Assembly (NCBI GenBank): GCA_002897715.1
Contig: BDUA01000009.1
Coordinates: 9,540-73,539 of the forward strand
DNA: 64,000 nt
Direction: 5' to 3'
From: a bacterium BMS3Abin01
GTDB lineage: Bacteria > Actinomycetota > Thermoleophilia > BMS3ABIN01
Numbering within the stretch: the first letter of the stretch is position 1; each line of letters starts with the position of its first letter. Below are positions 27,085 to 62,268 of the stretch, piece after piece. A program made the position numbers and the translations under genes. The notes below the pieces were generated by a model. The model worked only from the letters and a program-made list of their open reading frames with translations. It did no database searches and was not told where the DNA came from.

Positions 27085-27161
27085 GGGCGATTAGCTCAGC
27101 TGGTTAGAGCGCCGTCCTCACATGGCGGAGGTCACTGGTTCGAGTCCAGTATCGCCCACCA
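27085..27161 (+). tRNA. tRNA-Val (anticodon CAC), CCA encoded
   Basis: Hand-folded cloverleaf. Acceptor GGGCGAT/ATCGCCC, D arm GCTC/GAGC, anticodon stem CCGTC/GGCGG with loop CTCACAT, T arm ACTGG-TTCGAGT-CCAGT, then ACCA. Confidence 0.93.
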
Positions 27162-27182
27162 CCAACAACGTGACCCGGATGT

Positions 27183-27258
27183 GGGGGATTAGCTCAGTTG
27201 GGAGAGCGCTTGCTTCGCATGCAAGAGGTCACCGGTTCAAGTCCGGTATCCTCCACCA
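27183..27258 (+). tRNA. tRNA-Ala (anticodon CGC), CCA encoded
   Basis: Acceptor GGGGGAT/ATCCTCC with the G3:U70 Ala identity pair. Anticodon stem CTTGC/GCAAG with loop TTCGCAT; T loop TTCAAGT. Confidence 0.93.
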
Positions 27259-27301
27259 ATTTGAATCACCGGGGAATAACAGGAGCACCGTACTGCCGCG
27301 T

Positions 27302-27377
27302 GGGGGATTAGCTCAGTTGGGAGAGCACCTGGTTTGCATCCAGGAGGTCACCGGTTCGAGCCCGGTATCCTCCACCA
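27302..27377 (+). tRNA. tRNA-Ala (anticodon UGC), CCA encoded
   Basis: Same acceptor and D arm as the previous tRNA, including G3:U70. Anticodon stem CCTGG/CCAGG with loop TTTGCAT. Confidence 0.93.
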
Positions 27378-39570: not shown

Positions 39571-39612
39571 TATATACCGGCGGCCGCCCAGGCCGCAACC
39601 ATGACCTTTGAA

Positions 39613-39640
39613 GCCCCGGAGTCCCGGGGCTTTTTTATTT
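39613..39640 (+). terminator. Rho-independent terminator of the 3D-domain gene
   Basis: GCCCCGG-AGTC-CCGGGGC (7 bp stem) followed by TTTTTTATTT. Confidence 0.8.
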
Positions 39641-39689
39641 GATTTACCGGTCATGGATGGATTAATATATGAACATCCGTTCAGATATT
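39639..39689 (+). promoter_or_regulatory. arsR-czcD promoter with overlapping SmtB/CzrA-type 12-2-12 operator
   Basis: TTGATT (39639-44), a 17-18 nt spacer, then TTAATA/TAATAT. The inverted repeat AATATATGAACA-TC-CGTTCAGATATT (39664-39689) has 2 mismatches between the 12-nt arms. Confidence 0.55.
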
Positions 39690-40076
39690 CATGGATACCC
39701 GGCGGGTTCCTGTCATCTATATCGAACCGGGGCGGTGGCGCAGATTCAGGAAAGACTGCTCAGCAGCGGGGACGCTCGCGATCTGGCCGACCTGTTCCAG
39801 GTGATGGCCGATCCCACCCGCCTGCGTATCATCTCCTTGCTGGCCGAGACGGAGCTCTGCGTCTGTGATATCGCCGCCGCCCTGGAGATGACGCCATCGG
39901 CGGTTTCCCACCAGTTGCGGGTACTGCGCATGGCGCAGCTGGTGAAGTTCCGCAAGGAGGGCCGCATGGCTTACTACTCCCTGGATGACGACCATGTGCT
40001 CAAGCTGTACACCCAGAGCCTGGATCACCTGGGACACATGCCTGGCGGTGCCATCGGTCCTTTAGGGAAAAGCTAA
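39669..40076 (+). CDS. ArsR/SmtB-family metalloregulator with alpha5 (DxHx10Hx2H) site
   Basis: LADLFQVMADPTRLRIISLL and the ELCVCDIAAALEMTPSAVSHQLRVLR wHTH. C-terminal DDHVLKLYTQSLDHLGH fits DxHx10Hx2H. The real start may be GTG 39735, because ATG 39669 sits inside the operator/promoter. Confidence 0.85.
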   Translation: MNIRSDIHGYPAGSCHLYRTGAVAQIQERLLSSGDARDLADLFQVMADPTRLRIISLLAETELCVCDIAAALEMTPSAVSHQLRVLRMAQLVKFRKEGRMAYYSLDDDHVLKLYTQSLDHLGHMPGGAIGPLGKS

Positions 40077-40158: not shown

Positions 40159-41103
40159 ATGAGCGGTCACGACCACAACCACGGCGTCAGTGCGGAAAGT
40201 TTCTCCGAGGGCACAGCATACGCCCTCATGATGGGCATCGCCCTCAACCTGGTCATCGTGGTCGTGGAGATCGTTGCCGGCTATATCGCCGGCAGCCTGG
40301 GACTGCTCAGTGACGCCGTACACAACTTCACCGACATGGCGGCCCTGGGGCTTTCCTGGTTTGCTTTCGAGCAGGCCAGGAAGCCCGCTACCGCGGCCAA
40401 GACCTTCGGCTACCACCGGACGGGGATCCTTACCGCCCTCATCAACGCCACCGTCCTGGTGGTGATAACCGTCTGGATCTTCTATGAAGCCTACCATCGA
40501 CTGCTGGACCCGCAGCCCGTGGGTGGTCTCCTGGTGCTGGTCACCGCCACCGTCGCCCTCCTGGCCAACCTGTTGATCGTCTTCTTTCTGCGAAAACGGG
40601 CCGGCGGCGACATCAATATCCGCAGCGCCGTACTGCACCTGCTGGGAGATGCCGCCGCCTCCGCCGCGGTTGTCATCTCCGGCATCGTTATCATCGCCAC
40701 CGGCTGGTATCCCGTCGACCCCCTGGTGAGCGTGCTCCTGGGGCTGGCCATCCTCTGGGGGGCCTGGCGCATCATCAAGGAGACGGTGGAGATCTTTCTG
40801 GAAGAGTCGCCCCGCGCCATTGATGTGGACAGGGTGGTGGAAGAGTTAATGGAGGAGGACGGCGTGAAGGATATCCACGATATCCATGTCTGGACTATAG
40901 GTTCGGGGATCTATGCCCTCAGTTGCCACGTGCTGGTGGATGATGTGAAGGTAAGCGATAGCAGCCGTATAGCCCGGTATCTGAAGAAGATGCTGGCGCG
41001 CGATTTCGACATACATCACTCGACACTGGAGATGGAAACCGTGCCCTGTGACGTCAACGGCCCCTATTGTGACATTCAGCACCAGCATAACCGCCCAGAC
41101 TAG
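40159..41103 (+). CDS. Cation diffusion facilitator (CzcD/ZitB-like) metal efflux transporter
   Basis: Six TM helices, HxxxD-type sites (SDAVHNFTD, LHLLGDAAAS), a C-terminal cytoplasmic domain and a His-rich N-terminus. Confidence 0.9.
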   Translation: MSGHDHNHGVSAESFSEGTAYALMMGIALNLVIVVVEIVAGYIAGSLGLLSDAVHNFTDMAALGLSWFAFEQARKPATAAKTFGYHRTGILTALINATVLVVITVWIFYEAYHRLLDPQPVGGLLVLVTATVALLANLLIVFFLRKRAGGDINIRSAVLHLLGDAAASAAVVISGIVIIATGWYPVDPLVSVLLGLAILWGAWRIIKETVEIFLEESPRAIDVDRVVEELMEEDGVKDIHDIHVWTIGSGIYALSCHVLVDDVKVSDSSRIARYLKKMLARDFDIHHSTLEMETVPCDVNGPYCDIQHQHNRPD

Positions 41104-41158
41104 AAGAAAGGTTGCTAGAATAGGTTGGTAAGAAACGGACTACCAAGGAAGGTTTAAA

Positions 41159-41695
41159 TTGGCTAAGAAAAAAGGATCATCCGGCAAGCAGCGGAACCAG
41201 GTGAAATCCAGAGGCGGCCGGCCCGCGGGAAAGAAGAGGCCCGGCAATAACAGCACGGCCATGACCACCATAATCATCGGTGTGGCCCTGGCGCTGGGCA
41301 TTGTCGGTGGCATCGTGGTATGGAGCCTGACAAACAGCAGCGACGGCCTGGCCTTGCCCGACTTCGCCTACGCGGCGAGCGCTCCCAAGCAGGCGCCCCA
41401 GGGCTACCAGGCGGCTCTGGACATCCCCGAATACCTGGAACAGATCCCCTGTTACTGCGGTTGCGGCCAGTATGACGGGCACAAGAACAACCTGGACTGC
41501 TTCATCGAGTCACGCCAGGGCGACAAGGTGGAGTGGGATGACCACGCCGCCGGCTGAGACATATGAGTGAATATTGCTCTGGACGTGCTCCAGATGAAAA
41601 ACAAGGGAATGGATATCAAGGACATCCGGGCGAACATCGACGGGCAGTACGCCCCCAAGGGCTATACGCCCACGCCCACACCGCCGGTCGAGTAA
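41159..41695 (+). CDS. PCYCGC-motif membrane-anchored protein, candidate selenoprotein with two in-frame TGA codons (UxxU)
   Basis: TTG start 6 nt after AAGGAAGG, a basic tail plus TM helix, then IPCYCGCGQYDGHKNNLDCF. The frame continues through TGA 41555-57 and TGA 41564-66 for 42 more sense codons to TAA 41693-95. If the TGAs terminate, the CDS is 41159-41557. Confidence 0.6.
41578..41594 (+). promoter_or_regulatory. Candidate bacterial SECIS-like hairpin
   Basis: U-CUGGA-CGUGC-UCCAG-A hairpin starting 11 nt after the second TGA and 20 nt after the first. The apical loop contains GU. Confidence 0.35.
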
Positions 41696-44452: not shown

Positions 44453-45292
44453 ATGAGCGAAAAAAGGATCTCGCGCAGTGACCTGCTCAAAGCCGGTGGC
44501 GCTGTAGCTCTGGGAACCGCCACGGCAGGCATGATGCCTAAAGCCTTGAGGGGAAGCGTAGCCATGGCGCAGGAGCAGTTCGATCGCGAAGGCCCGCGCA
44601 ACGTCATGGTCATCGACCTGCGCAAGTGTATCGGTTGCCGCGGCTGTACGGTTACCTGCAAGTCGGAGAACAATGTGCCGCTGGACGTATGGAACACCGT
44701 GGTCAAACAGGAGGAACTGGAAAACGGCGCGTTTGCCAAGAAGGTCTTCCTTCCCCGCATGTGTAACCATTGTGAAGGTACTATCCAGCAGTCGCACGGA
44801 GCAACCTACCCGCCCTGTGTCAACGCCTGTCCCCGGAAAGATCTGGGAACCGCCGAATGGAATGGAATCGAGTACTACGTCGGCGCCACCTACAAACGGC
44901 CTGACGGCGCCATCCTCTACAACAGCGCTGAATGCGTTGCCTGCTATGCATGTGTGAAAGCATGCCCTTACGGCGCCCGCCATGTGGATAATTTCGTAAC
45001 GCCGGGGGGTCCGAACCCGTATAACCAGTACGGCATCGGCAAGTGCATCTTCTGCGTGCAACGCATTGACAACGGTGTTGTGCCGGCCTGTGTAAATACC
45101 TGCGAGGGCAGGGCAAGGGTGTTTGGAGACCGGAAAGATCCCGACAGTGAAGTATCCCAGCTAATCAACAGCTTCGACACAGTCCATCTCCTGCCGGAGG
45201 AAAACACGATGCCTCAGGTTTATTACATAGATCCGGATAATGTGTTAAGCACATTCCAGAAAGGTGAGCCGTTCAGAGACAAGGTAGACTAG
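44453..45292 (+). CDS. 4Fe-4S ferredoxin-type electron-transfer subunit (PsrB/NrfC/DmsB-like) with N-terminal Tat-like signal
   Basis: Four Cys clusters (CIGCRGCTVTC, CNHC..x14..CVNACP, CVACYACVKACP, CIFCVQRIDNGVVPACVNTC). The N-terminal signal-like region RISRSDLLKAGG has only one Arg in the twin-Arg position. Confidence 0.85.
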   Translation: MSEKRISRSDLLKAGGAVALGTATAGMMPKALRGSVAMAQEQFDREGPRNVMVIDLRKCIGCRGCTVTCKSENNVPLDVWNTVVKQEELENGAFAKKVFLPRMCNHCEGTIQQSHGATYPPCVNACPRKDLGTAEWNGIEYYVGATYKRPDGAILYNSAECVACYACVKACPYGARHVDNFVTPGGPNPYNQYGIGKCIFCVQRIDNGVVPACVNTCEGRARVFGDRKDPDSEVSQLINSFDTVHLLPEENTMPQVYYIDPDNVLSTFQKGEPFRDKVD

Positions 45293-45343
45293 CCGGATTA
45301 CCCTCGCAACAAGCAATTATTGAGCGAAAAGGAGAGATAAAGA

Positions 45344-47869
45344 ATGATTAGAACAACACGCCGGAACTTTTTGAAGCTGGGCATGGCCAGCGGCGCTCTT
45401 CTGGCTGCGGGAGAAGTCATCGGTTGCGGCCAGGAGTCCCTGACCGGGACCGTATCGCTGGAGCCGGGAGGCAAGGATTTTTCCCCGAAGACCGGGGCTG
45501 AACGGACCGCCATCCCCACCGCCTGCTGGAACTGTGTCACCCGTTGCGCAGCCATTGGTTTCGTCGAAGATGGCCGGCTGGTAAAGATGGAGTCCAATCC
45601 CGATTCCATCAGGACCGAGGGCAAGATGTGCGCCAAGGGACAAGCGGGTCCCAACCACGTGTACGACCCCGACAGGGTGCTCTACCCCATGAAGCGGGTC
45701 GGACCCCGCGGCGGCGGGCAGTGGCAGAGGCTCTCCTGGGATGCAGCACTCACGGAGATAGTGGATCATATCAAGCCGCTGCGCGATGCGGGAACGCCGG
45801 AAAAATTCATGTTCCACTACGGCAGGATGAAGGCCAGCTCCAGCAAGCTAGTAAAAAGCAGCTTCCTGCATACATTCGGCACCGAGACCATCGGCAACCA
45901 CACCTCTATCTGCGAGGGCGGTAAGTGGGTGGCCCAGGAGCTTACCTGGGGCAAACATTATGACAGCTGGGACTTCGATAATACCGGTTTCGTGCTCAAC
46001 TTCGGCAGCAATGTGTTTGAGGCTCATACCAATCATATCCCCACGTCTCCAAGGCTGATCAGAGCCATGACCGACCGGGGTGTAAGGCTGATCACCTTTG
46101 ACGTAAAGCTCTCCAATACGGCCGCCAAATCCAGCGAATGGATACCCATTAAACCGGGAACCGACGGTGCGGTGATGCTGGCCATGTGCAACCATATCAT
46201 TAGCAATAACCTGCATGACCGGGATTTCCTCGACTACGTCAAGGCAACGGGCGACCCCGATGCATCAACGGAAGAAAAGGAAGATTCCCTGCGCAACCAT
46301 CTGGACCGGTTCACCCCCGAGTGGGCGGAGGGCATCAGCGGCATCAGCGCAGATAAGATAAAAGCCGTAGCGGAAGATTTCGCCACTACCAAGCCGGCCT
46401 GCCTGATAACCTACCGGGGGGCTGTAGCCCACTATTGCGGCGCCGAGAACGAGCGTAGCGCCATGATGCTGGCCTCGCTTACCGGTAACATCGATAACCC
46501 CGGCGGCAGGTGCAAGGCAGTGGGCGCCTCCTGGGAATACCCCAAGAGCCCCGACCCGCCGGAGAAGAAGGGCCTGAAGATCCTAAACGGCTTCCCGGGA
46601 CAGGTGGCCTTCCCCAATCACCATGTAAGCAACCAGATACTGAAGATGATAAAAGACGGCAGCGCCGGCAGGCCCGAGGTATATATGTGGTACTGCCATA
46701 CGCCAGTATTCGCCAACGGCGAAGTACAGGAGAACATCGACGTCCTTAAAGATGAGAGCATGCTCCCGTACTCCATTTGCATCAATCCCTTTTATGATGA
46801 ATCGGCAGCGCTGGCGGATCTCATTCTTCCGGACGCCACCTATCTGGAGAGATGGGACAGCGAGGACATGGTCTCTCCAACCCAGGTAGCGGAATACTAC
46901 ATCCGCCAGCCGCTGGTAGAACCGCTTTGCGGTATCAAGTCCTTCGCCGATGTGTGCTTCGATCTGGCGGACAGGATGGGCATGCCGCTGTTCGAGTCCG
47001 AAGGGATCAACTCCATGGAGGACTTTGTCCGCTATGCCTGCGAAAACACCACGGGGGTACCGGGCTTCGATTACATGAAGCAAAACGGTGTCTGGCACGA
47101 TCCGGAGGCCGAGCCCAAGTACTACTCCTACAAGAAGGATATGGGCACGGATGAGGATCTCATCGCCGGCAGCTACACCCTCGATCCGGGGGGAACCGGC
47201 GTTTGGTGGAAACAGCCCAAGGAGGACGCCAGGTACGGCGACGACAAGCATGACTATAAAACCTACAAGGCCCAGAAGCTGGCGGACGGCACCAATGTCT
47301 CCGGTTTTAAACCAGACAAGATCAATAAATCCGGTTTCATGGAACTGTATTCGGAGCTCCTTGCCGGCAAGGACTATTCAGCCTTGCCTAGCTATTACCC
47401 GATACCGGAGCATCAGAATATGTCTGCGGGCCAGCTTGTCCTGACAACCTATAAGGTTGCCGTGCAGACCCATTCCCGCAATGCGAACTGCAAGTGGCTG
47501 AGCGAACTGTTCCATGAAAACCCCGGATGGATCCATCCGGATACGGCCGCGTCACTTGGTATCGGTGATGGAGACACCGTCAGTGTTACCTCCTCGGTGG
47601 GTTCTTTCAAGACGAAGGCCCGCGTGACCAAGGGCATTATCCCCGGCGCTATTGCGGTCTCCCACCATCTGGGACACTGGCAGTACGGCCGCTACGCATC
47701 GGGCAACCCTTCCCCGGATCCGCAACCGGCCGAATGCAGACCGGAGGCCGAGCAACATTGGTGGAACACTTACGGCGTGCGTCCCAACTGGGCCATACCG
47801 AACTCTCCCGATCCCATCAGCGGCCAGCAACGCTGGATGGATACGGTAGTAACGGTTACAAAGATCTGA
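45344..47869 (+). CDS. Tat-exported molybdopterin (bis-PGD) oxidoreductase catalytic subunit, Psr/Phs/Arr/Ttr-like; substrate unknown
   Basis: Twin-arginine signal TRRNFLKLG and a canonical FS0 motif CWNCVTRC-x27-C. Also HTSICEGG and PIKPGTDGAVMLAM blocks. 841 aa. Confidence 0.9.
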   Translation: MIRTTRRNFLKLGMASGALLAAGEVIGCGQESLTGTVSLEPGGKDFSPKTGAERTAIPTACWNCVTRCAAIGFVEDGRLVKMESNPDSIRTEGKMCAKGQAGPNHVYDPDRVLYPMKRVGPRGGGQWQRLSWDAALTEIVDHIKPLRDAGTPEKFMFHYGRMKASSSKLVKSSFLHTFGTETIGNHTSICEGGKWVAQELTWGKHYDSWDFDNTGFVLNFGSNVFEAHTNHIPTSPRLIRAMTDRGVRLITFDVKLSNTAAKSSEWIPIKPGTDGAVMLAMCNHIISNNLHDRDFLDYVKATGDPDASTEEKEDSLRNHLDRFTPEWAEGISGISADKIKAVAEDFATTKPACLITYRGAVAHYCGAENERSAMMLASLTGNIDNPGGRCKAVGASWEYPKSPDPPEKKGLKILNGFPGQVAFPNHHVSNQILKMIKDGSAGRPEVYMWYCHTPVFANGEVQENIDVLKDESMLPYSICINPFYDESAALADLILPDATYLERWDSEDMVSPTQVAEYYIRQPLVEPLCGIKSFADVCFDLADRMGMPLFESEGINSMEDFVRYACENTTGVPGFDYMKQNGVWHDPEAEPKYYSYKKDMGTDEDLIAGSYTLDPGGTGVWWKQPKEDARYGDDKHDYKTYKAQKLADGTNVSGFKPDKINKSGFMELYSELLAGKDYSALPSYYPIPEHQNMSAGQLVLTTYKVAVQTHSRNANCKWLSELFHENPGWIHPDTAASLGIGDGDTVSVTSSVGSFKTKARVTKGIIPGAIAVSHHLGHWQYGRYASGNPSPDPQPAECRPEAEQHWWNTYGVRPNWAIPNSPDPISGQQRWMDTVVTVTKI

Positions 47870-47985
47870 TTGGGAAAGGCGGCAAAACCCCCGGAGATTC
47901 CGGGGGTTTTGCCGCTGATTGCATTCTCGGAGCAATACCGGACGACGTACTATTCGCCTTCGAATCACGAGGGAGAGAGAAGATT

Positions 47986-48663
47986 ATGAGAGGTGAGCTC
48001 GTGGAGGAAGCTGATAAGAACAGCAAGGCTGAGAACTCGTTGGGACTGATCAACATCTATAGCTTCTTGGCAACTATCTATAACGAGGAAATAACTGCAC
48101 CTGTCCTGCGGCAGATCAGGAATCCCCGGTTTCTTGAGGCTTTATCCAGCGTAGGTGTTCAGTTGGATGATGACATGTTCAAGGGATCGGAAGACCGGCT
48201 GGTCGAGGACCTTGCAGTTGAGTACGCCAGGCTGTTCCTGGGTCCCGGAAAACATATCCCCCCTTATGAATCTGTTCATCATGAAAGGACCGACGGTGAT
48301 TGGGGCAGTTTGTGGGGTGCGGATACAGTCGCAGTCAAGAAATTCATTGAATCGACCGGGCTTGAATATCGATCAGAATACGACGGTTTGCCCGATCACA
48401 TAGGAGTAGAGTTGGAATTCATGAAGGAAGTTACCAGGCGCGAGGCTCAGGCCTGGGAAGAGAAAGATGAGGATGGCGCGGATTGCTGCCTTAAGATCAA
48501 GAAGAAGTTTATTGAGGAACATCTCGCCCGGTGGATTCCGGTTTTTTGCGATAAAGTAATCGCCGCAGCGAATCTTTCTTTCTACCGGGAAATCGCTGCG
48601 ATAACAAAAAGCTTTATTGAGTTTGAGAGAAAAGAAACAGACAGGTACTTATCGCGAGTGTAA
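47986..48663 (+). CDS. TorD/DmsD/NarJ-family redox enzyme maturation chaperone
   Basis: EYARLFLGPGKHIPPYESVH motif; downstream of the catalytic subunit. Start chosen at MRGELV after GGGAGAGAGA. Visibly more AT-rich than neighbouring genes. Confidence 0.8.
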   Translation: MRGELVEEADKNSKAENSLGLINIYSFLATIYNEEITAPVLRQIRNPRFLEALSSVGVQLDDDMFKGSEDRLVEDLAVEYARLFLGPGKHIPPYESVHHERTDGDWGSLWGADTVAVKKFIESTGLEYRSEYDGLPDHIGVELEFMKEVTRREAQAWEEKDEDGADCCLKIKKKFIEEHLARWIPVFCDKVIAAANLSFYREIAAITKSFIEFERKETDRYLSRV

Positions 48664-48689
48664 GAGAATAAATACCGCGCACGAGACCG

Positions 48690-49187
48690 TCAGCGTCCGC
48701 ATTCCCTTCCCCTGCCCGCCAGCAGTTCCAGGGCGTGGCCCAGGGCGGGCTCGATGACGGCGAAGGACTCCTCGCAGGCCTTGGGGCTGCCGGGAAAGTT
48801 GATGATAAGTGTGCGGCCGCGGGTACCGGCAACGGCGCGGGAGAGCATGGCCCGGGGTGTGATGGCCAGCGACCGGGTTCGCATGGTCTCGGTAAAGCCG
48901 GGGGCCTGGCGCTCGATGACATCGAGAGTAGCCTCGGGGGTGATATCCCTGGGCCCCAGGCCGGTGCCGCCATTGGTGATGATAAGGTCCGCGCCATGGC
49001 CGCAGAGTTGTATCAGCGTCTCGGTAATCTTTTCCTGCTCGTCAGGAACAATGGTTCGCGAAACCGTGCCGGCGCCAAAACCCATCAGTAGCCGCTCCAG
49101 AAGGTCGCCGCTGTCGTCGGCTCTCTCGCCGGCGGCACCCTTGTCGCTTATGGTAACGACAGCCGCTGTGAATCTCATCCGTATCAC
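48690..49187 (-). CDS. moaB: Molybdenum cofactor biosynthesis protein B / MogA-like (MoCF_biosynth domain)
   Basis: AAVVTISDKGAAGERADDSG and ITNGGTGLGPRDITPEAT motifs. Confidence 0.85.
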   Translation of the reverse strand: MIRMRFTAAVVTISDKGAAGERADDSGDLLERLLMGFGAGTVSRTIVPDEQEKITETLIQLCGHGADLIITNGGTGLGPRDITPEATLDVIERQAPGFTETMRTRSLAITPRAMLSRAVAGTRGRTLIINFPGSPKACEESFAVIEPALGHALELLAGRGRECGR

Positions 49188-49311
49188 TCTCCTGTACGAT
49201 TATTCAATGATAGACAAAAAGCAGATCCCTCGCTGCGCTCGGGATGACAGGGCGCGGCGAAATGCCAGTGATGCTTCAACGGACGTCGTTTCCAGGCCCC
49301 GTCCTGTCCAT

Positions 49312-49803
49312 CTATTTCACTGCGGACGGATAATCGCCGGCCATGACGATATGGTCTTCCGCCCTCACCGTGCCGCCCTCCAGCACGCGCACGAATATCC
49401 CCTCCCTCGGCATGACACAGTCGCCGGCCTGGCGGTAGATGGCGCAGCGGTCGTGGCACTCCTTGCCGATCTGGGTTACCTCCGCCAGCGCCGGTCCCAG
49501 CCTGAGCCGCGTACCCACGGGCAGATGCGGCAGGTCGATGCCCTCGGTGGTAAGGTTCTCGGCGAAATCGCCCGGGCCCACATCGAGGCCCTTGTCGACC
49601 ATCTTGCCGATACTCTCTATGGCCAGCAGGCTCACCTGCCGGTGCCACTTGCCGGCGTGGCCATCGCCGACGATACCGTGTTCCGGCCTGAGCTCTCCCT
49701 CCTCCACCGGCTTCTTGCGTTCTCCCTTGCTGCTAGAGGTATTGACCGAGATGATACGAGCGGCCTTGTTCCCTGTATCTGTTCCTTCTTTGTTCATAGT
49801 CAC
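49312..49803 (-). CDS. MOSC domain protein
   Basis: ISVNTSSSKGERKKPV...GIVGDGHAG..HRQVSLLAIES pattern of MOSC beta-barrel proteins. ATGA overlap with the moaC stop. Confidence 0.75.
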   Translation of the reverse strand: MTMNKEGTDTGNKAARIISVNTSSSKGERKKPVEEGELRPEHGIVGDGHAGKWHRQVSLLAIESIGKMVDKGLDVGPGDFAENLTTEGIDLPHLPVGTRLRLGPALAEVTQIGKECHDRCAIYRQAGDCVMPREGIFVRVLEGGTVRAEDHIVMAGDYPSAVK

Positions 49804-50348
49804 TCCTCTGTTGCGCTGTCGTCGCCGGAAACCAGTCCGGGTTCCTCCTCGTCCGGCCTCTGCCAGTCTGATTTGCCGCCACGCTTGTCCAGTACCATGA
49901 TGTCAGTGATGACCATGCCCCGGTCCACCGCCTTACACATGTCGTAGACGGTGAGGGCGGCCACGGAGGCTGCGGTAAGCGCTTCCATCTCCACTCCGGT
50001 GCGGGCGGACACGCAGGCTGAAGCTACGATATCCACCGTTGACTCATCCCGGTCCAGATGAAACTCGATCGCCACATGATCCAGGGGCAACGGATGGCAC
50101 ATGGGGATGAGCCGCGGCGTCTCCTTGGCCGCCATGATGCCGGCCACCCGCGCCACGGATAGCACATCTCCTTTAGGCAGGGCCTGCTCCTCGAGCAGGC
50201 GCATGGTCTCTGGCGCCATGCGTACCCGCGCCGCTGCCCGCGCCAGGCGCGCCGTCACCGGCTTTTCGCCCACGTCCACCATGCGCGCGGCCCCCTTCTC
50301 ATCGATATGGGAAAACGCCGCTTCCCTGTCGACTTCATTCCGGCGCAT
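49800..50348 (-). CDS. moaC: Cyclic pyranopterin monophosphate synthase
   Basis: MVDVGEKPVT, LIPMCHPLPL and the TGVEMEALTAASVAALTVYDMCKA blocks. It has an acidic C-terminal extension. Confidence 0.9.
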   Translation of the reverse strand: MRRNEVDREAAFSHIDEKGAARMVDVGEKPVTARLARAAARVRMAPETMRLLEEQALPKGDVLSVARVAGIMAAKETPRLIPMCHPLPLDHVAIEFHLDRDESTVDIVASACVSARTGVEMEALTAASVAALTVYDMCKAVDRGMVITDIMVLDKRGGKSDWQRPDEEEPGLVSGDDSATEE

Positions 50349-50418
50349 AACTGCCCCCTCTCGTCTGTCCCTGTTGTATCTTCATAGTCGAAAAAGACAT
50401 ATTGATTGCCCTGCGGTA

Positions 50419-51462
50419 TCAGCCGCCCAACTGGGCCATTGTCCTGGCGCCCGGGTCCTCGGCCAGACGATTGAACCTCTTGCTATTGATGGAATACCGG
50501 ATGACGCGCCTGAGGATATCCGGGTCGCCGCCGATAAAGGGCCGTACATCCACTTCCTTGTCGGAAAAAAGACAGTTGCGCAGCCTGCCGTCAGCGGTCA
50601 GCCTCAGGCGATTGCAGCGTGAGCAGAAATGGTCGCTCATGGAGCTGATGAAACCGACGGTCCCAAGCATCCCGTCAAGGCGGAAGTAGCGCGCCGGCCC
50701 CCCGCCTGCGGGTGAATGGGCGGGCTCCAGCTTACCGAAGCGTCCGATCAGGTCCATCAGCCTCCTCCGCGAGACGAAGCGCCAGTCACCGCCGCGGCGG
50801 CGGCCGATGGGCATGAACTCGATGAAGCGCACATGCACCGGCCGCTCCCGAGCGAGACGCACGAAAGCTTCCACGTCGTCCTCTATGCCTTCCAGCATTA
50901 CGGCGTTAACCTTGACCGGCGCCAGTCCGGCGTCGAGCGCCCGCTCAAGGCCGGCCAGCACCGGCCTCAGCTCCCGCCCGCTGGTGATGCGCCGGAAGCG
51001 TTGCGGGTTGAGGCTATCGATGCTGATGTTGATGCGCGAAAGCCCCGCCTGCCGCAGCTGCTCCTCGTGCCCGGCGAGCAGCGAACCGTTGGTGGTAAGG
51101 GAAAGGTCCTCGACCCCCGGCAGGGCCGCCAGCCGCGCCAGCAGCCCGGTACAGCCCTTGCGCACAAGCGGCTCGCCGCCGGTGACGCGCACACGGCTGA
51201 CTCCCATGGTGGTGGCCACGAACACGAACCTCTCGATCTCCTCGAAGGAAAGGATCTGCTCATGGAGTTTGGCGTGAACACCCTCCGGTGGCATGCAGTA
51301 GATGCAGCGGAAGTTACAGCGGTCGGTGATGGAAACACGCAGGTAGTCGATGACCGGGGCCGGGGTCCGGTTGACATCAAGGCCTTTCCCCGGGGAGGCC
51401 TCCCAGGCAATCCCAGGCATTGCACTCCTGCTGTGACCATCGTTGCCGGTAGTGATCTTCAT
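50419..51462 (-). CDS. moaA: GTP 3',8-cyclase (radical SAM)
   Basis: LRVSITDRCNFRCIYCMP cluster motif, TGGEPL, and a C-terminal second-cluster CSRCNRLRLTADG. ATGA overlap with the mobA-mobB stop. Confidence 0.9.
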   Translation of the reverse strand: MKITTGNDGHSRSAMPGIAWEASPGKGLDVNRTPAPVIDYLRVSITDRCNFRCIYCMPPEGVHAKLHEQILSFEEIERFVFVATTMGVSRVRVTGGEPLVRKGCTGLLARLAALPGVEDLSLTTNGSLLAGHEEQLRQAGLSRINISIDSLNPQRFRRITSGRELRPVLAGLERALDAGLAPVKVNAVMLEGIEDDVEAFVRLARERPVHVRFIEFMPIGRRRGGDWRFVSRRRLMDLIGRFGKLEPAHSPAGGGPARYFRLDGMLGTVGFISSMSDHFCSRCNRLRLTADGRLRNCLFSDKEVDVRPFIGGDPDILRRVIRYSINSKRFNRLAEDPGARTMAQLGG

Positions 51463-52637
51463 GATGCGCCCTCCGCCTCGCCTTCTGCTCCTGACGCGCC
51501 TCCCGGCCTTGATGCGCCCAAACGATAGCGCTCGAGCAGGAAGCTCGTGAGCCCGTCGATGTCATCCATCCCGAAAACGGGTACCGACGCAGCCGCATTG
51601 GGACGGTCGGAGACTACAGCTATGAGCTCATCTTCGCTCAATACAAGTTCATGACTCCGCTCACTGCGAGATACTTCGATCCTGTCCGCCTCGGCGCTCT
51701 TGTAACCTTCGGCGACGATGATGTCCACCGGGGATTCCACTTGCCGCCGCAGCTCCGCCAGCGACTTTTCCCGTTCCAGCCGTTTTAAATCCGCGCAGGC
51801 GCCGGGCGACGAGATGACGACCTGACGGGCGCCGGCGCGGGCAATACGCCATGTATCGGTTCCCTCGTGATCCATGGAGAAGCTGTGTACATCATGCTTG
51901 ATGAAGGCCACTTCCAACCCCGCTTCCCTGAGTCGCGGCACCAGCTTCTCAATAAGCGTCGTCTTGCCCGAATTCTTCTTGCTCACGAAACAGACGAGCG
52001 GCGGCCGCAGGTGCGCGGGAGCCGCGGCTGTTGGCCCCCGTGCCGCCAGCAGCTCTTCCGCCCGCTCCAGATCCCCGGGGGTGTTAATATTGAAAAAAGC
52101 GATTGCGGGATCGCAGACAGCCTTTAGCTCCGCTTCGTCCACGTATCTAACATCCAGATCGCCCAGCGACCGCCGCAGGGAGAACCGGCCTTGGCTGATA
52201 TTCTCCTCAAGAGCGTCCAGGCAAGACCTGGAGTAAACTGCGCAGAGCGGCTCGGGGCCGTCCACACCTATGGGCACAACGGCGTCATGGCCGTCAACCA
52301 GCCCCGCCATCAGCTCCACCAGTTCCTGCGCGACGAAGGGCAAGTCACAGGAGATTGCCAGGCAATTCTTCCTGGGGGAAGCCGCCAGAGCCGAATAGAT
52401 ACCGACGATCGACGCCCGGAATGTGAACTGGTCGGCGCAGTGAGGCAGACCGAAGCACCGGTATGTCGCGGCTTCGCCACCGACGATGAAAGCTTCCTCC
52501 TCCTGCGGCGACAACGCCTCTATTACGCGGAGGATCAGGGGCTTTCCCGCCAGTTCCTCCATGGCCTTGTTCCGCCCCATGCGGCTGCTCTCGCCGCCGG
52601 CAAGGATGGCGATGGATATCTTTCGCGCGTCAACCAT
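51459..52637 (-). CDS. Fused MobA (molybdenum cofactor guanylyltransferase) - MobB (MGD biosynthesis adapter)
   Basis: N-terminal AILAGGESSRMGRNKA (MobA). C-terminal SKKNSGKTTLIEKL...IKHDVHSFSMDHEGTDT (MobB P-loop). Start chosen at MVDARK, 8 nt overlap with the ABC ATPase stop. Confidence 0.85.
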   Translation of the reverse strand: MVDARKISIAILAGGESSRMGRNKAMEELAGKPLILRVIEALSPQEEEAFIVGGEAATYRCFGLPHCADQFTFRASIVGIYSALAASPRKNCLAISCDLPFVAQELVELMAGLVDGHDAVVPIGVDGPEPLCAVYSRSCLDALEENISQGRFSLRRSLGDLDVRYVDEAELKAVCDPAIAFFNINTPGDLERAEELLAARGPTAAAPAHLRPPLVCFVSKKNSGKTTLIEKLVPRLREAGLEVAFIKHDVHSFSMDHEGTDTWRIARAGARQVVISSPGACADLKRLEREKSLAELRRQVESPVDIIVAEGYKSAEADRIEVSRSERSHELVLSEDELIAVVSDRPNAAASVPVFGMDDIDGLTSFLLERYRLGASRPGGASGAEGEAEGAS

Positions 52638-53793
52638 GGGAAACCGTAGCTCCCGGCAATTCCGCCGGCGCGACCGCGCTGCCGGTGTCCGCCGCCTCCA
52701 GGAAGCTCCCTTTACCTGCCCGTACAAGACGCACGGCCGCCGGTGAAATCCGAGCCTCAACCTTTACGCCAGGGGCCAGCCCCAGCCGCACAGCCTCGGG
52801 CCTGGTAATCACGGCAACAAGCTTGAAGCCGCAGTCGATGGTTACTTTATGAGCCGGGCTGGCGTAGGCGATCGATTCCACCACGGCGGTGAAACGGTTC
52901 ACCCTGCCAGCAGTGTCCCACCGCGGGAAGGGATGAAGGGTAATATCCTCGCCTCTTATGCACGCCGCCACCAGGCCAGCGGCCGCTGTTGCGGAGCGGA
53001 GGCTGTGCCCTTTCGCAGCCTCGAGCTTCACCACGGCGCCACCGTCAATGATACCGGTGGCGCGGCCGGCGAGAAGATTCTCAAATCCAAGCAAGCGAGC
53101 CGAAAAAATATCAGCAGGCGCATTAATGATCTCGGCAACAGGTCCGACCTGGCAAAACTTGCCTTCGTTCATGACCGCCAGGCGGTCTGCGACAACCGCT
53201 GCGTCGGCGAGGGAATGGGTTACATAGGCCACCGTCGTCTTGAGCGCCTCAATGGTATGACGCAGGTCCAGCTGGAACTCCTCGCGGACGAGAGGGTCGA
53301 GGCCGGCCGCCGGTTCGTCAAGGAAGAGAACATCCGGCTCCACTGCCACGGCACGCGCCAGGGCCACCCGCTGGGCCTGGCCGCCGGAGAGCTTGCGCGC
53401 GTTACGTTGTGCCAGCTCCGTCAAACTGAAGTCTTCCAGCACCTGCTCGAGGCGGCGTGACATTTCACACCGTGGCAGGCGCCTAAGTCGGAGTCCATAG
53501 GCAACGTTGTCGGCGACACTGCCTTTGAAAAGGAAGGGACGCTGGAAGACACCTGCCATGCGGCGCCTGGCCCATATGCTGCCCTTGTCAACACGCTTGC
53601 CGTTGAAGCGGATCTCGCCGCCGTCGGAGTCCTCCACCAGGTTCAACAAGCGCAGCAGTGTGGACTTGCCGGCCCCATTGGCTCCCATGATGCAAAACGT
53701 CTCCCCCCGACGGAGTGCCAATCTGCCGACATCCAGCACCACCCGGCCATCGTAGCGGCGTTTAAGCCCCGATGCCACCAACACGGCACTCAT
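52630..53793 (-). CDS. ABC transporter ATP-binding protein with C-terminal TOBE/Mop-like domain (molybdate/tungstate type, ModC/TupC-like)
   Basis: Walker A GANGAGKST, signature LSGGQAQRV, Walker B LFLDEP. An extra C-terminal beta-rich domain of about 130 aa. Confidence 0.85.
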   Translation of the reverse strand: MSAVLVASGLKRRYDGRVVLDVGRLALRRGETFCIMGANGAGKSTLLRLLNLVEDSDGGEIRFNGKRVDKGSIWARRRMAGVFQRPFLFKGSVADNVAYGLRLRRLPRCEMSRRLEQVLEDFSLTELAQRNARKLSGGQAQRVALARAVAVEPDVLFLDEPAAGLDPLVREEFQLDLRHTIEALKTTVAYVTHSLADAAVVADRLAVMNEGKFCQVGPVAEIINAPADIFSARLLGFENLLAGRATGIIDGGAVVKLEAAKGHSLRSATAAAGLVAACIRGEDITLHPFPRWDTAGRVNRFTAVVESIAYASPAHKVTIDCGFKLVAVITRPEAVRLGLAPGVKVEARISPAAVRLVRAGKGSFLEAADTGSAVAPAELPGATVSHG

Positions 53794-54479
53794 GCTGCTG
53801 TCTCCTTAACCTGCAGCCGCGACATGAAGGCATTGGCGGCCAGAGCTATCCCCAATAAAATAACGCCCAAGGCCAGTCCGACCGAATAATTGCCCTTACG
53901 CACTTCTTCCATGATGGCCGTGGTCATTACCTGTGTGTTCCCCTTTATATTGCCACCTACCATCATTACCGCCCCCACCTCGGCGATGACCCGTCCCATA
54001 CCTGCGACCAGTGCCATTACCAGAACCAATCGCGCCTCCCGCAGAGCCAGCACCGCGATCTGCATCCGCCCCGCCCCCAGGGAACGCGCCTGCAGCAACA
54101 GTTCCTTCGAGACGCCACTTATGCCGGCAACGGTGATACCCAGTATCAACGGTACAGCCATGATAAGTTGCGCCGTCATCATGGCCTGCTTGGTATACAA
54201 GAGCTGGAAAGAACCCAACGGACCGGTGCGGGAGAGAAGCAGGAAGACCAGCAGGCCCACTACCACCGGTGGCAGGGCCATGCCGGTGTTTACCACAGAA
54301 ATGGCGGCGCTGCGCCCGGGAAACCGGGCCAGGCCCACCAGCAGGCCGAGGGGGATGCCGATCAAAGCCGCCGAGAGTACAGCCACGCCCGACACTTCCA
54401 GTGAACGCAGGATGATTATCCAGACACCGGAGTCGGTCGTTAGCATCTCTACAGCCTGTTTTATCGCTTCCCAGATCAT
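53790..54479 (-). CDS. ABC transporter permease, tungstate/molybdate type (TupB-like)
   Basis: MIWEAIKQAVEMLTTD...SLEVSG N-terminus and the EAA-loop region (ARSLGAGRMQIAVLALREA). GAGGAG precedes ATG 54479. The track ORF (to 54569) runs into the riboswitch. Confidence 0.8.
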   Translation of the reverse strand: MIWEAIKQAVEMLTTDSGVWIIILRSLEVSGVAVLSAALIGIPLGLLVGLARFPGRSAAISVVNTGMALPPVVVGLLVFLLLSRTGPLGSFQLLYTKQAMMTAQLIMAVPLILGITVAGISGVSKELLLQARSLGAGRMQIAVLALREARLVLVMALVAGMGRVIAEVGAVMMVGGNIKGNTQVMTTAIMEEVRKGNYSVGLALGVILLGIALAANAFMSRLQVKETAA

Positions 54480-54544
54480 AAAAAACTCTCCTCGCTGTTG
54501 CGAAAAGAGTAACGGCTGCCAGGGCGCCACCCGGCGCTCCGCCT

Positions 54545-54660
54545 CAATGCGTTTCTCCTTTCCAAACACGGGAGGCCTGCCGGTTTCCCAACAAACCCTG
54601 TCGGCGTCTTGTCCTAGCCTTTTCCTGCCGACCTTAGACCCAGACGCTCGGAGAATTACT
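54545..54660 (-). promoter_or_regulatory. Moco (moaA-motif) riboswitch candidate
   Basis: The minus strand reads CUCCGAGC (54653-54646)...GCGUCU/AGACGC and GGUUU/AAACC stems...GGCCUCCC...UGGAAAGGAG (to 54555). These match my memory of the conserved Moco-motif blocks. It lies in the leader of a transporter + Moco biosynthesis operon. Confidence 0.65.
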
Positions 54661-54673
54661 ATGTGTTTAAACT

Positions 54674-59673: not shown

Positions 59674-62268
59674 ATGACAAAAGAGAAAGGTAAAGCCGGG
59701 GTTCTCGGCATCAATCCGAGCATTTCCCGCCGCTCCTTCATCAAGTGGGGCGGAACGGTAAGCGGCGCGGCCGTTGCCAGTTCCCTGTTACCGGGAGGCC
59801 TGTTAAAACAGGTCTTCGATACCGAGCAGGCCAAAGCAGCAGGCGGCACCTGGACTTATACCGCCTGCAACATGTGTGGCGGCCAGAGCGGTATCAAGGT
59901 GAATGTGGAAGGCGGCACCGTCAAGAAGATCGAGCCCAGCGGATTCAATCCCGCCGGCGTCACCAACATCTGCACCGACAACGCCAACGACCCCTCGGAT
60001 TTCCTCCATACGGACTGGGGCGGCTGCATGTGTCCCAAGGGCAACGCGGGGGTCAAGTCGCTCTATGACCCCGACAGGCTGATGACCCCCATGAAGCGCC
60101 GTGCGACTTCACCGCGAGGCGCGGGAGCCATCTGGGACCCCATCAGTTGGGATGACGCACTCAACGAGGTCAAGAGCAGGCTGGAGGAGATCGCGTCAGC
60201 AACGGGCGGCTATACCGGAGCCCATCAGGTCCTGTGGTTTGGTGAGGATCACTCCTTCACCCATCCTCAGAAGGACTTCTGCAAGATGTACGGCACGCCC
60301 AACTACATGAATCACTCCAACCTCTGCGACACGGGCCGCAAGCGGATCTTCAGCGTGCCCATGGGTGACGAACGTCCCATTCCCGACTACGCGCATGCCA
60401 AGTACGCGCTGGTCTTCGGCTGGAACTTCCTGGCGGCAACCAAGTGGTCGCACCTGCCCCGTATCGCACGGCAGTTCTTCGACAACGGTGGCCGCATGGT
60501 TCTCGTCGATCCCGTCTTCAGCAACACGGCGGCGGCGGCAAGGCGCAACGGTGGTGAGTGGGTACCCATCAAGCCGGGTACGGACGGCGCCCTCGCATTA
60601 GCCATGGCCTACGTGATCATCAACGAGAGCAGGTATGACGCTGCTTTCGTGGGCAGTAATGTGATCGGCTTCTCCGAGTACAGCGACTACGTGAACGGGC
60701 TCGGCAGCGACAGCACCGCCAAGACGCCCGCATGGGCGGAAGCCAAGACCGGCATACCTGCCGCCGATATCGAGCGCCTGGCGCGCGAGGTATCCGACCC
60801 TGGTAACCATCCGGCCATCATCGACTGCTGGTCCGGACCGGGGCAGCATACCAACGCTGTCCAGGGCGGCCGCGCCATCTCGGCACTTATGGCGCTAACC
60901 GGCCAGATTGGTGGTGCCGGCAACATGGTGTTCGCTCACAAGAAAGGCAACAAGCACCGCACTATCGTCAAGTCCCTGTCCTCGCTCTCGAGGCCACGGG
61001 TCGACGGAAAGGGCTACCCTGTTTCACAAAACGGATACCCCTTGGCGCACGGTTCGGGCATCTACGTGCGGGCGCGGGACGTCATGTATGATTCCGACCT
61101 GTCCGCGGCGGCATACTGGGCCAAGTACCCTTACCTGGGCGCCTCGGAAGCCGAGGCGGATGAAAACCGGCCCAAGGCGGCGGTATTCGTCTTCCAGAAC
61201 TGGGTGATGTCTGTGCCCAACACTCAGAAGAACATCGATGCCCTCAACAAGCTGGACTTCATCGTGACCATAGACACACACCTGAGCGAGACCGCCCAGA
61301 TGTCCGACATCATCCTGCCGGGCTCCAACTACCTGGAGCGCTACGACTTCACCGGCAACTGGGTGACTTTCTACAGCACCAGCCTGCGGCAACCGGTGGT
61401 CAACTCCTGGATCGGCAACCCCTACGGTTATGAGGCAGGGACGATCATGGAACTGGGACGCAGGATGGGTCTCAGCGGCGACCCGGGCAGCACACCGCCC
61501 GGTGACTTCAATATGACCTACGAACAGTACCTGGGGCAGGAACTACTGCTTCAATCCACCATCAAGGCCTCCCTCTACCCCTCGGGGGACCCCAGCAACC
61601 TGGCGGATTGTGACGCAGCCCTCAATGCCATGAAGGCGCTGCCCGGTGCCGTGTGGCCTTCGGCGGCCGAGCTTCAGGCTAATGTCGCCACCTGGGGCAC
61701 CCAGTACGGCAACATCAGCAAGCTCAAACGCAAGAGTGACAGCAGACAGATAATAGTACTCAATTCCTACTCGGGCACGGACGACGGTTCCGGTAACGCC
61801 GACGAGATAATCGGCTACCACTCCCTGGAGACCGCCGGTTACGACGCTCTGCCGGTATACGCCGACCCGGTGGACACGCCAGCCAACACGCCTGGGTATC
61901 CGCTCCACCTGGTCAACTGGAAGCAGTCGGAGCATACCCATTCGCGGACGCACAACAACATCTGGCTGATGGAGATGAAGGGAACCAACCCGGTCTACAT
62001 CAACACGGCCACGGCTTCCGGGCTGGGTATAGTCGACGGCGATGCCATCACGGTGGAATCACCATACGCAACCGTCAACGGCACTGCTTTCGTTACCGAA
62101 GGCATCCAGCCCGATACTGTCGGTATGCTGCATGGCTTCGGACACACGGCGCTGGGCACCATCGCTCAGGGTAAGGGCACATCTGACGGAGCGCTTCCTC
62201 CCGGCAAGGCGGAAGCGATATCCGGCCAGGCCTGCCACAAGGAAGTCGCCGTGAAAGTCTACAAGTGA
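59674..62268 (+). CDS. Tat-exported molybdopterin (bis-PGD) oxidoreductase catalytic subunit, paralog of 45344-47869; substrate unknown
   Basis: Twin-arginine signal SRRSFIKWGG and N-terminal cluster region CNMCGGQS...NIC...GGCMCPKG. Also HSNLCDTG and PIKPGTDGALALAM blocks. 864 aa. Confidence 0.9.
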   Translation: MTKEKGKAGVLGINPSISRRSFIKWGGTVSGAAVASSLLPGGLLKQVFDTEQAKAAGGTWTYTACNMCGGQSGIKVNVEGGTVKKIEPSGFNPAGVTNICTDNANDPSDFLHTDWGGCMCPKGNAGVKSLYDPDRLMTPMKRRATSPRGAGAIWDPISWDDALNEVKSRLEEIASATGGYTGAHQVLWFGEDHSFTHPQKDFCKMYGTPNYMNHSNLCDTGRKRIFSVPMGDERPIPDYAHAKYALVFGWNFLAATKWSHLPRIARQFFDNGGRMVLVDPVFSNTAAAARRNGGEWVPIKPGTDGALALAMAYVIINESRYDAAFVGSNVIGFSEYSDYVNGLGSDSTAKTPAWAEAKTGIPAADIERLAREVSDPGNHPAIIDCWSGPGQHTNAVQGGRAISALMALTGQIGGAGNMVFAHKKGNKHRTIVKSLSSLSRPRVDGKGYPVSQNGYPLAHGSGIYVRARDVMYDSDLSAAAYWAKYPYLGASEAEADENRPKAAVFVFQNWVMSVPNTQKNIDALNKLDFIVTIDTHLSETAQMSDIILPGSNYLERYDFTGNWVTFYSTSLRQPVVNSWIGNPYGYEAGTIMELGRRMGLSGDPGSTPPGDFNMTYEQYLGQELLLQSTIKASLYPSGDPSNLADCDAALNAMKALPGAVWPSAAELQANVATWGTQYGNISKLKRKSDSRQIIVLNSYSGTDDGSGNADEIIGYHSLETAGYDALPVYADPVDTPANTPGYPLHLVNWKQSEHTHSRTHNNIWLMEMKGTNPVYINTATASGLGIVDGDAITVESPYATVNGTAFVTEGIQPDTVGMLHGFGHTALGTIAQGKGTSDGALPPGKAEAISGQACHKEVAVKVYK

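Follow-up and report, generated by a model that had tools for sequence, protein, structure and literature searches.

A candidate two-selenocysteine form of the PCYCGC family encoded behind an ArsR-CDF metal module in an uncultured actinobacterium

We analyzed a 64,000-nucleotide (nt) stretch of DNA from bacterium BMS3Abin01 (contig BDUA01000009.1; this stretch is called the window, and coordinates are those of the window), which contains a PCYCGC-family gene interrupted by two in-frame TGA codons. The gene lies at 41159–41695 on the plus strand and has 178 codons, including the two TGAs, followed by a TAA stop at 41693–41695. A Shine-Dalgarno-like sequence, AAGGAAGG (41145–41152, +), is found 6 nt 5′ of the TTG start codon at 41159, and homologs begin at the same position with ATG or TTG. 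The first TGA (UGA-1, 41555–41557, +) is the predicted codon for selenocysteine (Sec) 133, and the second (UGA-2, 41564–41566, +) is the predicted codon for Sec136. Between them are the codons GAC ATA, and after UGA-2 there are 42 sense codons (41567–41692, +; VNIALDV...PTPTPPVE) that, judging by Pfam coverage, make up the latter half of the PCYCGC domain. Read as one, the product has 178 residues, while the product called up to the first TGA is 132 residues and is present in databases, in identical form, as a hypothetical protein of "bacterium BMS3Abin01". An earlier note on this DNA had described the same open reading frame (ORF), TGA pair, 42-codon extension and joined translation, and its coordinates and 178-residue product match ours exactly. 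Below we give the evidence that this gene is very probably read through at both UGAs to produce a selenoprotein with a UxxU motif, where U is Sec and x is any residue.

TGA is an ordinary stop codon elsewhere in the window, as the earlier note had also stated. It terminates 31 of the 53 large ORFs, so the genetic code has not been reassigned and a recoded code is ruled out. When the PF13798 (PCYCGC) profile is compared with the 132-residue call, it scores 59.1 bits and covers profile positions 43–107 of 153. When it is compared with the read-through product carrying Cys at both TGAs, it scores 108.7 bits (cutoff 25) and covers positions 43–151 of 153. From this rise in score and coverage, we conclude that the sequence past the first TGA encodes the missing third of the domain. 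We then aligned the 178-residue read-through product with 71 full-length homologs. The UGA-2 column is the invariant second Cys of CxxC forms. The UGA-1 column, where UxxC forms have their Sec and CxxC forms their first Cys, has Cys in at least 90% of these homologs. The two TGAs therefore sit exactly where the family has its C-x-x-C, which bears out the proposal of the earlier note. Over all 72 sequences, the invariant residues are P97, C98, C100, G101, H108, C114, H129 and C136, and Y99, C102 and C133 are at least 90% conserved. The window protein has the PCYCGC motif (P97–C102; 41447–41464, +), the D-C and the two-His pattern, with UGA at columns 133 and 136.

Database entries for this family often end at the same place. 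Among 40 homologs inspected, 33 are 97–133 residues long and stop at a shared column, "...D.H..G", while the other seven are full-length and run on past that column as C-x-x-C-x-x-I-A. When 1.84 billion cluster representatives were searched, 38 had E≤1e-10 and 28 of these stop at the Sec column, and the 26 nearest database relatives all end at the column of the first TGA.

We next turned to the DNA of relatives, with two loci from a genome collection, 80 from metagenomes and 15 from an exact-protein look-up. The 80 metagenome loci were ranked by tblastn score, which favors uninterrupted Cys forms, so the ratio of forms among them is no estimate of frequency. In 12 distinct loci (the window, L001–L006, L085, L086, L088, L091 and L092), we observe TGA-x-x-TGA followed by an open, conserved tail that ends in PTPTP. 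These 12 UxxU loci come from independent assemblies and samples (metagenome-assembled genomes (MAGs) at NCBI, ENA, JGI and Logan), and their protein identity goes down to 47%. Two further members of their clade, L089/L090 and L099, have TGA-x-x-TGT. Outside the clade there are about ten UxxC loci, with TGA then TGC or TGT, and ~37 CxxC loci, and no CxxU form was found among the fetched loci. At the two columns, 26 of 26 stops are TGA and never TAA or TAG. Column 2 is limited to TGA, TGT and TGC in the fetched loci, which at the level of sequence is the classical exchange between Sec and Cys. The codon pair between the TGAs stays in frame in the UxxU loci and is conserved as D-I, D-L or H-L, and the base directly 3′ of UGA-1 is G or C and that of UGA-2 is G in all loci.

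The tail is under selection as protein. In 55 pairwise comparisons among clade members, the mean proportion of nonsynonymous differences (pN) in the tail is 0.24 and that of synonymous differences (pS) is 0.50, and from this difference we conclude that the tail evolves as protein in the read-through frame. The 24 codons upstream of the first TGA give values close to these (pN 0.20, pS 0.49). If the gene were a pseudogene, or if its TGAs were assembly or sequencing errors for TGC or TGT, then the protein would be dead or would in fact carry CxxC. The window does come from a MAG, and TGA is one base away from both TGC and TGT, but an error or decay of this kind would have to account for both TGAs in 12 distinct loci from independent assemblies with identity down to 47%, for a tail with pN far below pS and for 26 closest relatives that all end at this column. 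We find this explanation barely credible.

A neighbor-joining tree of the domain groups the UxxU loci into one monophyletic clade, which includes L089 (UxxC) as a nested member, and the remaining UxxC forms are dispersed among CxxC lineages. With ~110 aligned residues, this tree is rough and serves as a sketch only; L099 is not in it and was placed in the clade by similarity. The two UxxC loci of the clade, L089/L090 (~4498–4515) and L099 (~529–546), belong to different subclades (ALDVLRM and ALAVSQW), and both have GAC ATC TGT GTC where UxxU loci show GAC ATA TGA GTG. The recurrence of three identical differences may, as far as sequence can tell, reflect recombination, or else selection acting on the codons to either side of UGA-2. 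The scattered UxxC loci (L008, L024, L055, L056, L074, L075, L077, L083 and L093) have a hairpin at one position with the near-identical sequence CAUCACG-CGGGA-CGUGAUG. Scattered UxxC forms with a common hairpin suggest either an old Sec state that was often lost to Cys or horizontal transfer.

Comparison of the loci also reveals a hairpin downstream of the two UGAs in the window. This hairpin (41578–41594, +) resembles a selenocysteine insertion sequence (SECIS) and has a UCUGGA/UCCAGA stem (41578–41583 and 41589–41594) and a CGUGC loop (41584–41588). The loop is separated from UGA-1 by 26 nt and from UGA-2 by 17 nt. The published model for a bacterial SECIS (bSECIS) has a loop of 3–9 nt, a stem of 4–16 base pairs (bp) and a UGA-to-loop distance of 16–37 nt, with a G within the first two loop positions that is usually followed by G or U (PMC13188914). 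With its 6-bp stem, the window hairpin agrees with every element of this model for UGA-1 and UGA-2 alike. With numbering that starts at the U of UGA-1, or at the first base of the Cys codon in its place, all UxxU-clade loci have a 6–7-bp stem with a CGUGC or CGUGA loop at nt 30–34. In the nine UxxC loci, which belong to scattered lineages, the stem occupies nt 18–24/30–36 and is mostly of 7 bp, with a CGGGA or CGUGA loop at nt 25–29. No hairpin at a consistent position was found in 36 CxxC loci. The mean best hairpin energy is −4.0 kcal/mol for CxxC, −7.6 for UxxC and −8.0 for UxxU forms.

The stem is conserved as a stem. In an alignment of 13 sequences of the UxxU clade, 92.3% of cells are paired, compared with 22–45% when the 3′ arm is slid by 1–3 columns. 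Two stem pairs are changed on both sides (U-A in seven sequences and A-U in six; A-U in eight and C-G in five), and because L085 has one of these changes and not the other, the two compensatory changes occurred on different branches. The covariation score is 0.322, compared with 0.099 for shuffled alignments, and it was matched by 0 of 500 shuffles. Some of the compensatory changes alter the protein (D to A together with L to S; M to W), and thus constraint on the RNA can be discerned over and above that on the protein. In the UxxC group, 95.2% of cells are paired and one pair is compensatory, and RNAalifold recovers the UxxU and UxxC hairpins without guidance. Folding 41540–41640 as a single sequence showed nothing notable (z-score +1.05). 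We also considered a second SECIS between the two UGAs. No conserved hairpin was found there, since the small AU-rich pairings are out of register across loci and RNAalifold gives only a weak 4-bp GU-rich helix, and this candidate was rejected.

These observations bear on a second explanation, in which the gene is split: the 132-residue product would end at UGA-1, the 42-residue tail would be re-initiated at a GTG, and the two would assemble noncovalently. A GTG directly follows the second TGA in 11 of the 12 UxxU loci, gene callers call a separate 42-residue tail ORF in L001 and L085, and purifying selection on the tail fits a split gene too. The GTG, however, is explained by a conserved Val, Ile, Leu or Met that the Cys forms also have at this position, and in L002 the codon is GTA, which does not serve as a start. 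A split gene would delete two of the most conserved Cys of the domain and would leave unexplained why both stops are always TGA, why the dipeptide between them stays in frame and conserved, and why a covarying hairpin is limited to TGA-bearing genes. In addition, the UxxC relatives share the architecture without having a start codon directly after their lone TGA. We consider a split gene very unlikely.

With Sec decoding of both UGAs as the preferred reading, the geometry of the locus can be described as follows. In the one-Sec forms the UGA-to-loop spacing is 21 nt. In the two-Sec clade the hairpin is 5 nt further downstream, and with this shift the 21-nt spacing is bracketed by those of UGA-1 (26 nt) and UGA-2 (17 nt). 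The hairpin in the window spans 17 nt and begins 11 nt after UGA-2. The minimal element of Escherichia coli fdhF, in work attributed to Liu et al. in Nucleic Acids Res in 1998, is said to be a 17-nt upper stem-loop located 11 nt after the UGA, and we take the spacing of the window hairpin after UGA-2 (17 nt, 11 nt) to be this same minimal geometry. Like the fdhF-type SECIS and the bSECISearch consensus, the window element is a stem-loop within the ORF, 16–37 nt away, with a small loop bearing G followed by U or G; it differs in that no bulged U or extended lower stem is seen and in that one hairpin is proposed to serve two codons. In the mechanism we propose, both UGAs (41555 and 41564) would be decoded as Sec, converting the CxxC of the family to UxxU, and the lone hairpin in the ORF (41578–41594) would direct both events. 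SelB with Sec-tRNA(Sec) would bind the apical loop containing G and U, and Sec would be inserted first at UGA-1, 26 nt from the loop. Three codons later, a new complex would form on this hairpin and insert the second Sec at UGA-2, which is 17 nt from the loop. The simplest model that we infer from these sequences is that a single SECIS acts two times, one after the other.

A third explanation is that the UGAs are read through without selenium, by a near-cognate or suppressor tRNA inserting Trp, Cys, Arg or Gly, or that only UGA-1 is decoded as Sec while UGA-2 is read through or terminates translation, yielding a mixed product. No Sec machinery was found in the window or the fetched loci, a single SECIS would be expected to decode two close UGAs with low efficiency, and the G or C after UGA-1 and the G after UGA-2 are present in all loci; G or C after UGA provides a relatively weak context for RF2. 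On the other hand, TGA is a genuine stop for most genes in the window, and the UGAs fall exactly at the Cys/Sec columns of a catalogued selenoprotein family. Selenium-free read-through would not call for a hairpin that agrees with the bSECIS model and is missing from Cys forms, nor for a column 2 limited to TGA, TGT and TGC, and if partial read-through stopped at UGA-2, the tail that is under selection would not be translated. We therefore judge this explanation unlikely.

That the family includes selenoproteins is already known. A 2026 review lists PF13798/OS_HP4, "CYCXC family protein", as a predicted selenoprotein that has a UxxC motif with a single Sec (PMC13188914), a 2022 review also gives OS_HP4 as UxxC, and the NCBIfam entry NF041379 is named "OS_HP4_CYCXC, CYCXC family (seleno)protein". 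The earlier note was thus mistaken in supposing that the family had not been described as such, and since Sec at the first column is already catalogued, selenoprotein status of the family is not new. The main text of the 2007 Olavius paper names OS_HP1-3 only, and for that reason the link between OS_HP4 and PF13798 rests on the 2022 and 2026 reviews. NF041379 scores 82.3 bits against the read-through product and 59–77 bits against ten other members (five UxxC, two UxxU and three Cys). All 11 proteins are below its 90-bit equivalog cutoff, and therefore NF041379 covers a narrower subfamily; by these scores the window protein is related to it at the level of the family and not as an equivalog. 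OS_HP4/CYCXC proteins (PF13798, NF041379) have the same domain and the same PCYCGC...DC...H...CxxC pattern as the window protein, with Sec at the first CxxC position and a SECIS hairpin in the ORF directly downstream. The window protein differs from their UxxC forms in having two predicted Sec rather than one, a loop that starts at nt 30 rather than 25 after UGA-1, ArsR and CDF (cation diffusion facilitator) partners rather than cupredoxin and cytochrome c genes, and an actinobacterial host.

UxxU is listed in the 2026 review for Prx-like, NF041115 metal-binding and FmdB families and not for PF13798, and for many proteins of the UxxU type there is a link to resistance against heavy metals, in which Sec may serve as a metal ligand (PMC13188914). 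As proposed for the window protein, these other UxxU families have a Sec pair in place of CxxC and two UGAs 9 nt apart (PMC13188914). Unlike the window protein, they belong to unrelated folds and families, of which at least one is metal-related. The two Sec residues in the UxxU of Selenoprotein L from aquatic animals reportedly form a diselenide (a finding credited to Shchedrina et al. in PNAS in 2007). Selenoprotein L shares UxxU with the window protein but is eukaryotic and has a thioredoxin-like fold, a SECIS in the 3′-UTR (untranslated region) and no homology to it. Full-text literature searches gave no report of a two-Sec PCYCGC, CYCXC or PF13798 form. What appears to be new is the UxxU form, the SECIS 5 nt further downstream, the actinobacterial host and the ArsR-CDF operon context.

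The window protein has a Lys/Arg-rich N-terminus followed by a single hydrophobic segment, A34–L57 (41258–41329, +; read from the translation), which we take as a signal anchor and which agrees with the transmembrane anchor proposed earlier. It has no lipobox, while Bacillota homologs have a lipobox Cys in place of this anchor (PMC13068155; also seen in our alignment). Because of the basic N-terminus and hydrophobic segment, and because the Bacillota members are lipoproteins, the Cys/His-rich domain is most likely extracytoplasmic, with the N-terminus in the cytoplasm by the positive-inside rule. In an AlphaFold2 model of the Cys homolog P0035, the domain has a predicted local distance difference test score (pLDDT) of ~98, and CxxC is at the start of helix 106–120. 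The start of a helix is the usual position of both redox-active and metal-binding CxxC motifs. Sequence and fold searches of the PDB gave no significant match. The top Foldseek match was the periplasmic domain of CcmH (PDB 2hl7 and 2kw0), with a target-normalized TM-score of 0.57, E of 0.58, probability of 0.54 and 12% identity, which is not significant. Like the PCYCGC domain, the CcmH domain is small, helical, membrane-anchored and extracytoplasmic with a CxxC by a helix; CcmH, a non-thioredoxin CxxC thiol-disulfide oxidoreductase of cytochrome c maturation, lacks the PCYCGC motif. This modeled likeness is a lead only and no evidence of common function.

The PCYCGC gene is preceded on the plus strand by two metal-related genes, as the earlier note had recognized. 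The first encodes an ArsR/SmtB-family metalloregulator (39669–40076, +; NF033788, 104.8 bits, cutoff 55), and the second encodes a CDF metal efflux transporter (40159–41103, +; TIGR01297, 264.9 bits, cutoff 82; ZitB-like, 226.9 bits). A terminator-like hairpin is located at 39610–39633, just 5′ of arsR, and none was found between the arsR, CDF and PCYCGC genes. From this arrangement, the three genes are probably one co-transcribed operon that begins with arsR. The ArsR-CDF-PCYCGC order is found in 8 of the 9 loci with sufficient flank, sometimes with two CDF genes; loci with a window-like gene order are L001, L002, L086, L088, L089, L091 and L092. L085 (9493–10020) is a UxxU locus without CDF, and thus the ArsR-CDF link is not universal in the clade; a 175-residue ORF with no Pfam match overlaps the start of its PCYCGC gene. 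In L004 (4551–4622, −), ARAGORN calls a tRNA-Thr (anticodon TGT) antisense within the PCYCGC coding region, which is probably a false positive because no other locus shows one.

The gene context of other family members is different. The UxxC forms L093–L095 and the closest Cys form (L096/L097) have a cupredoxin/COX2-like gene directly downstream, and further downstream in L093–L097 are a gene for a ~470-residue membrane protein with a faint Fer4_5 match and a COX2-cytochrome c fusion gene. By analogy with its neighbors, this suggests that PCYCGC in these lineages may act in maturing or supplying copper or heme proteins. The Parageobacillus member adjoins a gene for an Fe(III)-binding protein (PMC13068155), and no telling gene context was found for the Virgibacillus member.

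For the window protein, we propose that the selenol pair would act outside the membrane, either as soft-metal ligands or as a redox-active diselenide/selenol couple, and that it would work with the four other Cys and two His of the protein. Our best guess is an extracytoplasmic protein for soft-metal binding or selenol/thiol redox chemistry that partners the CDF exporter. Between metal handling and pure thiol-disulfide redox, we see the scales as level. We give an even chance to the full proposal, in which the 5-nt-shifted SECIS would decode UGAs 9 nt apart and the resulting selenol pair, outside the membrane, would form either a diselenide or a bis-selenolate site for metal and work with the CDF exporter, in an anaerobic actinobacterial lineage.

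Several observations weigh against Sec decoding at both UGAs or against parts of the proposal built on it. The filter that the window hairpin passes is also passed after 9.5% of all UGA triplets in the window and after 2 of 28 genuine TGA stops, so a hairpin by itself is weak evidence; because mere presence is common by chance, its weight comes from conservation, covariation and absence from Cys forms. The covariation in turn rests on few independent events since the 14 clade sequences are kin, and Rfam at a permissive threshold gave no matching SECIS model. The distance from UGA-1 to the base of the stem is 20 nt in the UxxU window compared with 14 nt in UxxC forms. The UxxC loci within the clade (L089/L090 and L099) bear the same shifted hairpin, so the shift marks the clade as a whole and does not strictly depend on a second UGA. 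Reloading of SelB on one hairpin within three codons would be a hypothetical step. No selA, selB, selD or tRNA-Sec was found within the 64-kb window or the fetched loci, and a motif search for Sec machinery in the window and related loci gave one spurious match only. As for function, the modeled protein is a 40%-identical Cys homolog, and with no significant structural neighbor, function is drawn from context only. Set against these points are the alignment of both TGAs with conserved Cys, the TGA pair in 12 loci, selection on the tail and a covarying hairpin confined to TGA forms, and with these the UxxU interpretation put forward in the earlier note stands.

An order and a family within Thermoleophilia (Actinomycetota) are named after BMS3Abin01; they are uncultured, and sulfate reduction is predicted for them. 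The related loci come from MAGs labeled Thermoleophilia or Actinomycetes. A literature search for Sec in Thermoleophilia or BMS3Abin01 found nothing useful. A scan of the window for a second selenoprotein gene by in-frame TGA was swamped by false positives at 60% GC, and one candidate, a minus-strand frame at 53.4–53.8 kb, was rejected as an ordinary ABC permease and ATPase pair. Molybdoenzyme genes are numerous in the window, which has two PhsA/PsrA-like molybdopterin oxidoreductase catalytic subunit genes (45344–47869 and 59674–62268), both intact and without an in-frame TGA, and genes for a TtrB/DsrO-like 4Fe-4S subunit (44453–45292), moaA (50419–51462, −) and a mobA/mobB fusion (51459–52760, −); none of the molybdoenzyme genes at 44453–52760 and 59674–62268 has an in-frame TGA. 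A molybdenum/tungsten cofactor riboswitch (RF01055, 73.5 bits; 54539–54665, −) precedes genes for an ABC permease (53790–54569) and ATPase (52630–53793), and this region (52630–54665, −) probably encodes a riboswitch-controlled system for the uptake of molybdate or tungstate. A very strong hairpin at 47867–47960 (+), with a 15–16-bp stem and an energy of about −30 kcal/mol, starts ~8 nt after the TGA stop of the oxidoreductase gene at 45344–47869, with its loop ~23 nt downstream, and is followed by an 885-nt stretch without a large ORF; it could represent either a terminator or a repeat element. Three tRNA genes (Val-CAC, Ala-CGC and Ala-TGC) are clustered at 27085–27377 (+).

The database entries inspected for this clade are all cut short at 97–133 residues and lack a third of the domain along with two of its most conserved residues. 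If the two-Sec interpretation is true, the locus would be a natural case of SECIS geometry tuned for tandem Sec insertion and an uncatalogued UxxU member of the PCYCGC family. The clade and its relatives offer three states of one site, namely CxxC with no hairpin, UxxC with a hairpin and UxxU with the hairpin shifted by 5 nt, and comparing these states makes the question of one SECIS serving two nearby UGAs testable with reporters. The PCYCGC family is functionally uncharacterized, and its two contexts, CDF efflux on the one hand and cupredoxin and cytochrome c genes on the other, supply concrete hypotheses. A pair of Sec residues on an exported domain, whose gene follows those for an ArsR sensor and a CDF exporter, would point to selenium-based handling of soft metals outside the cell.

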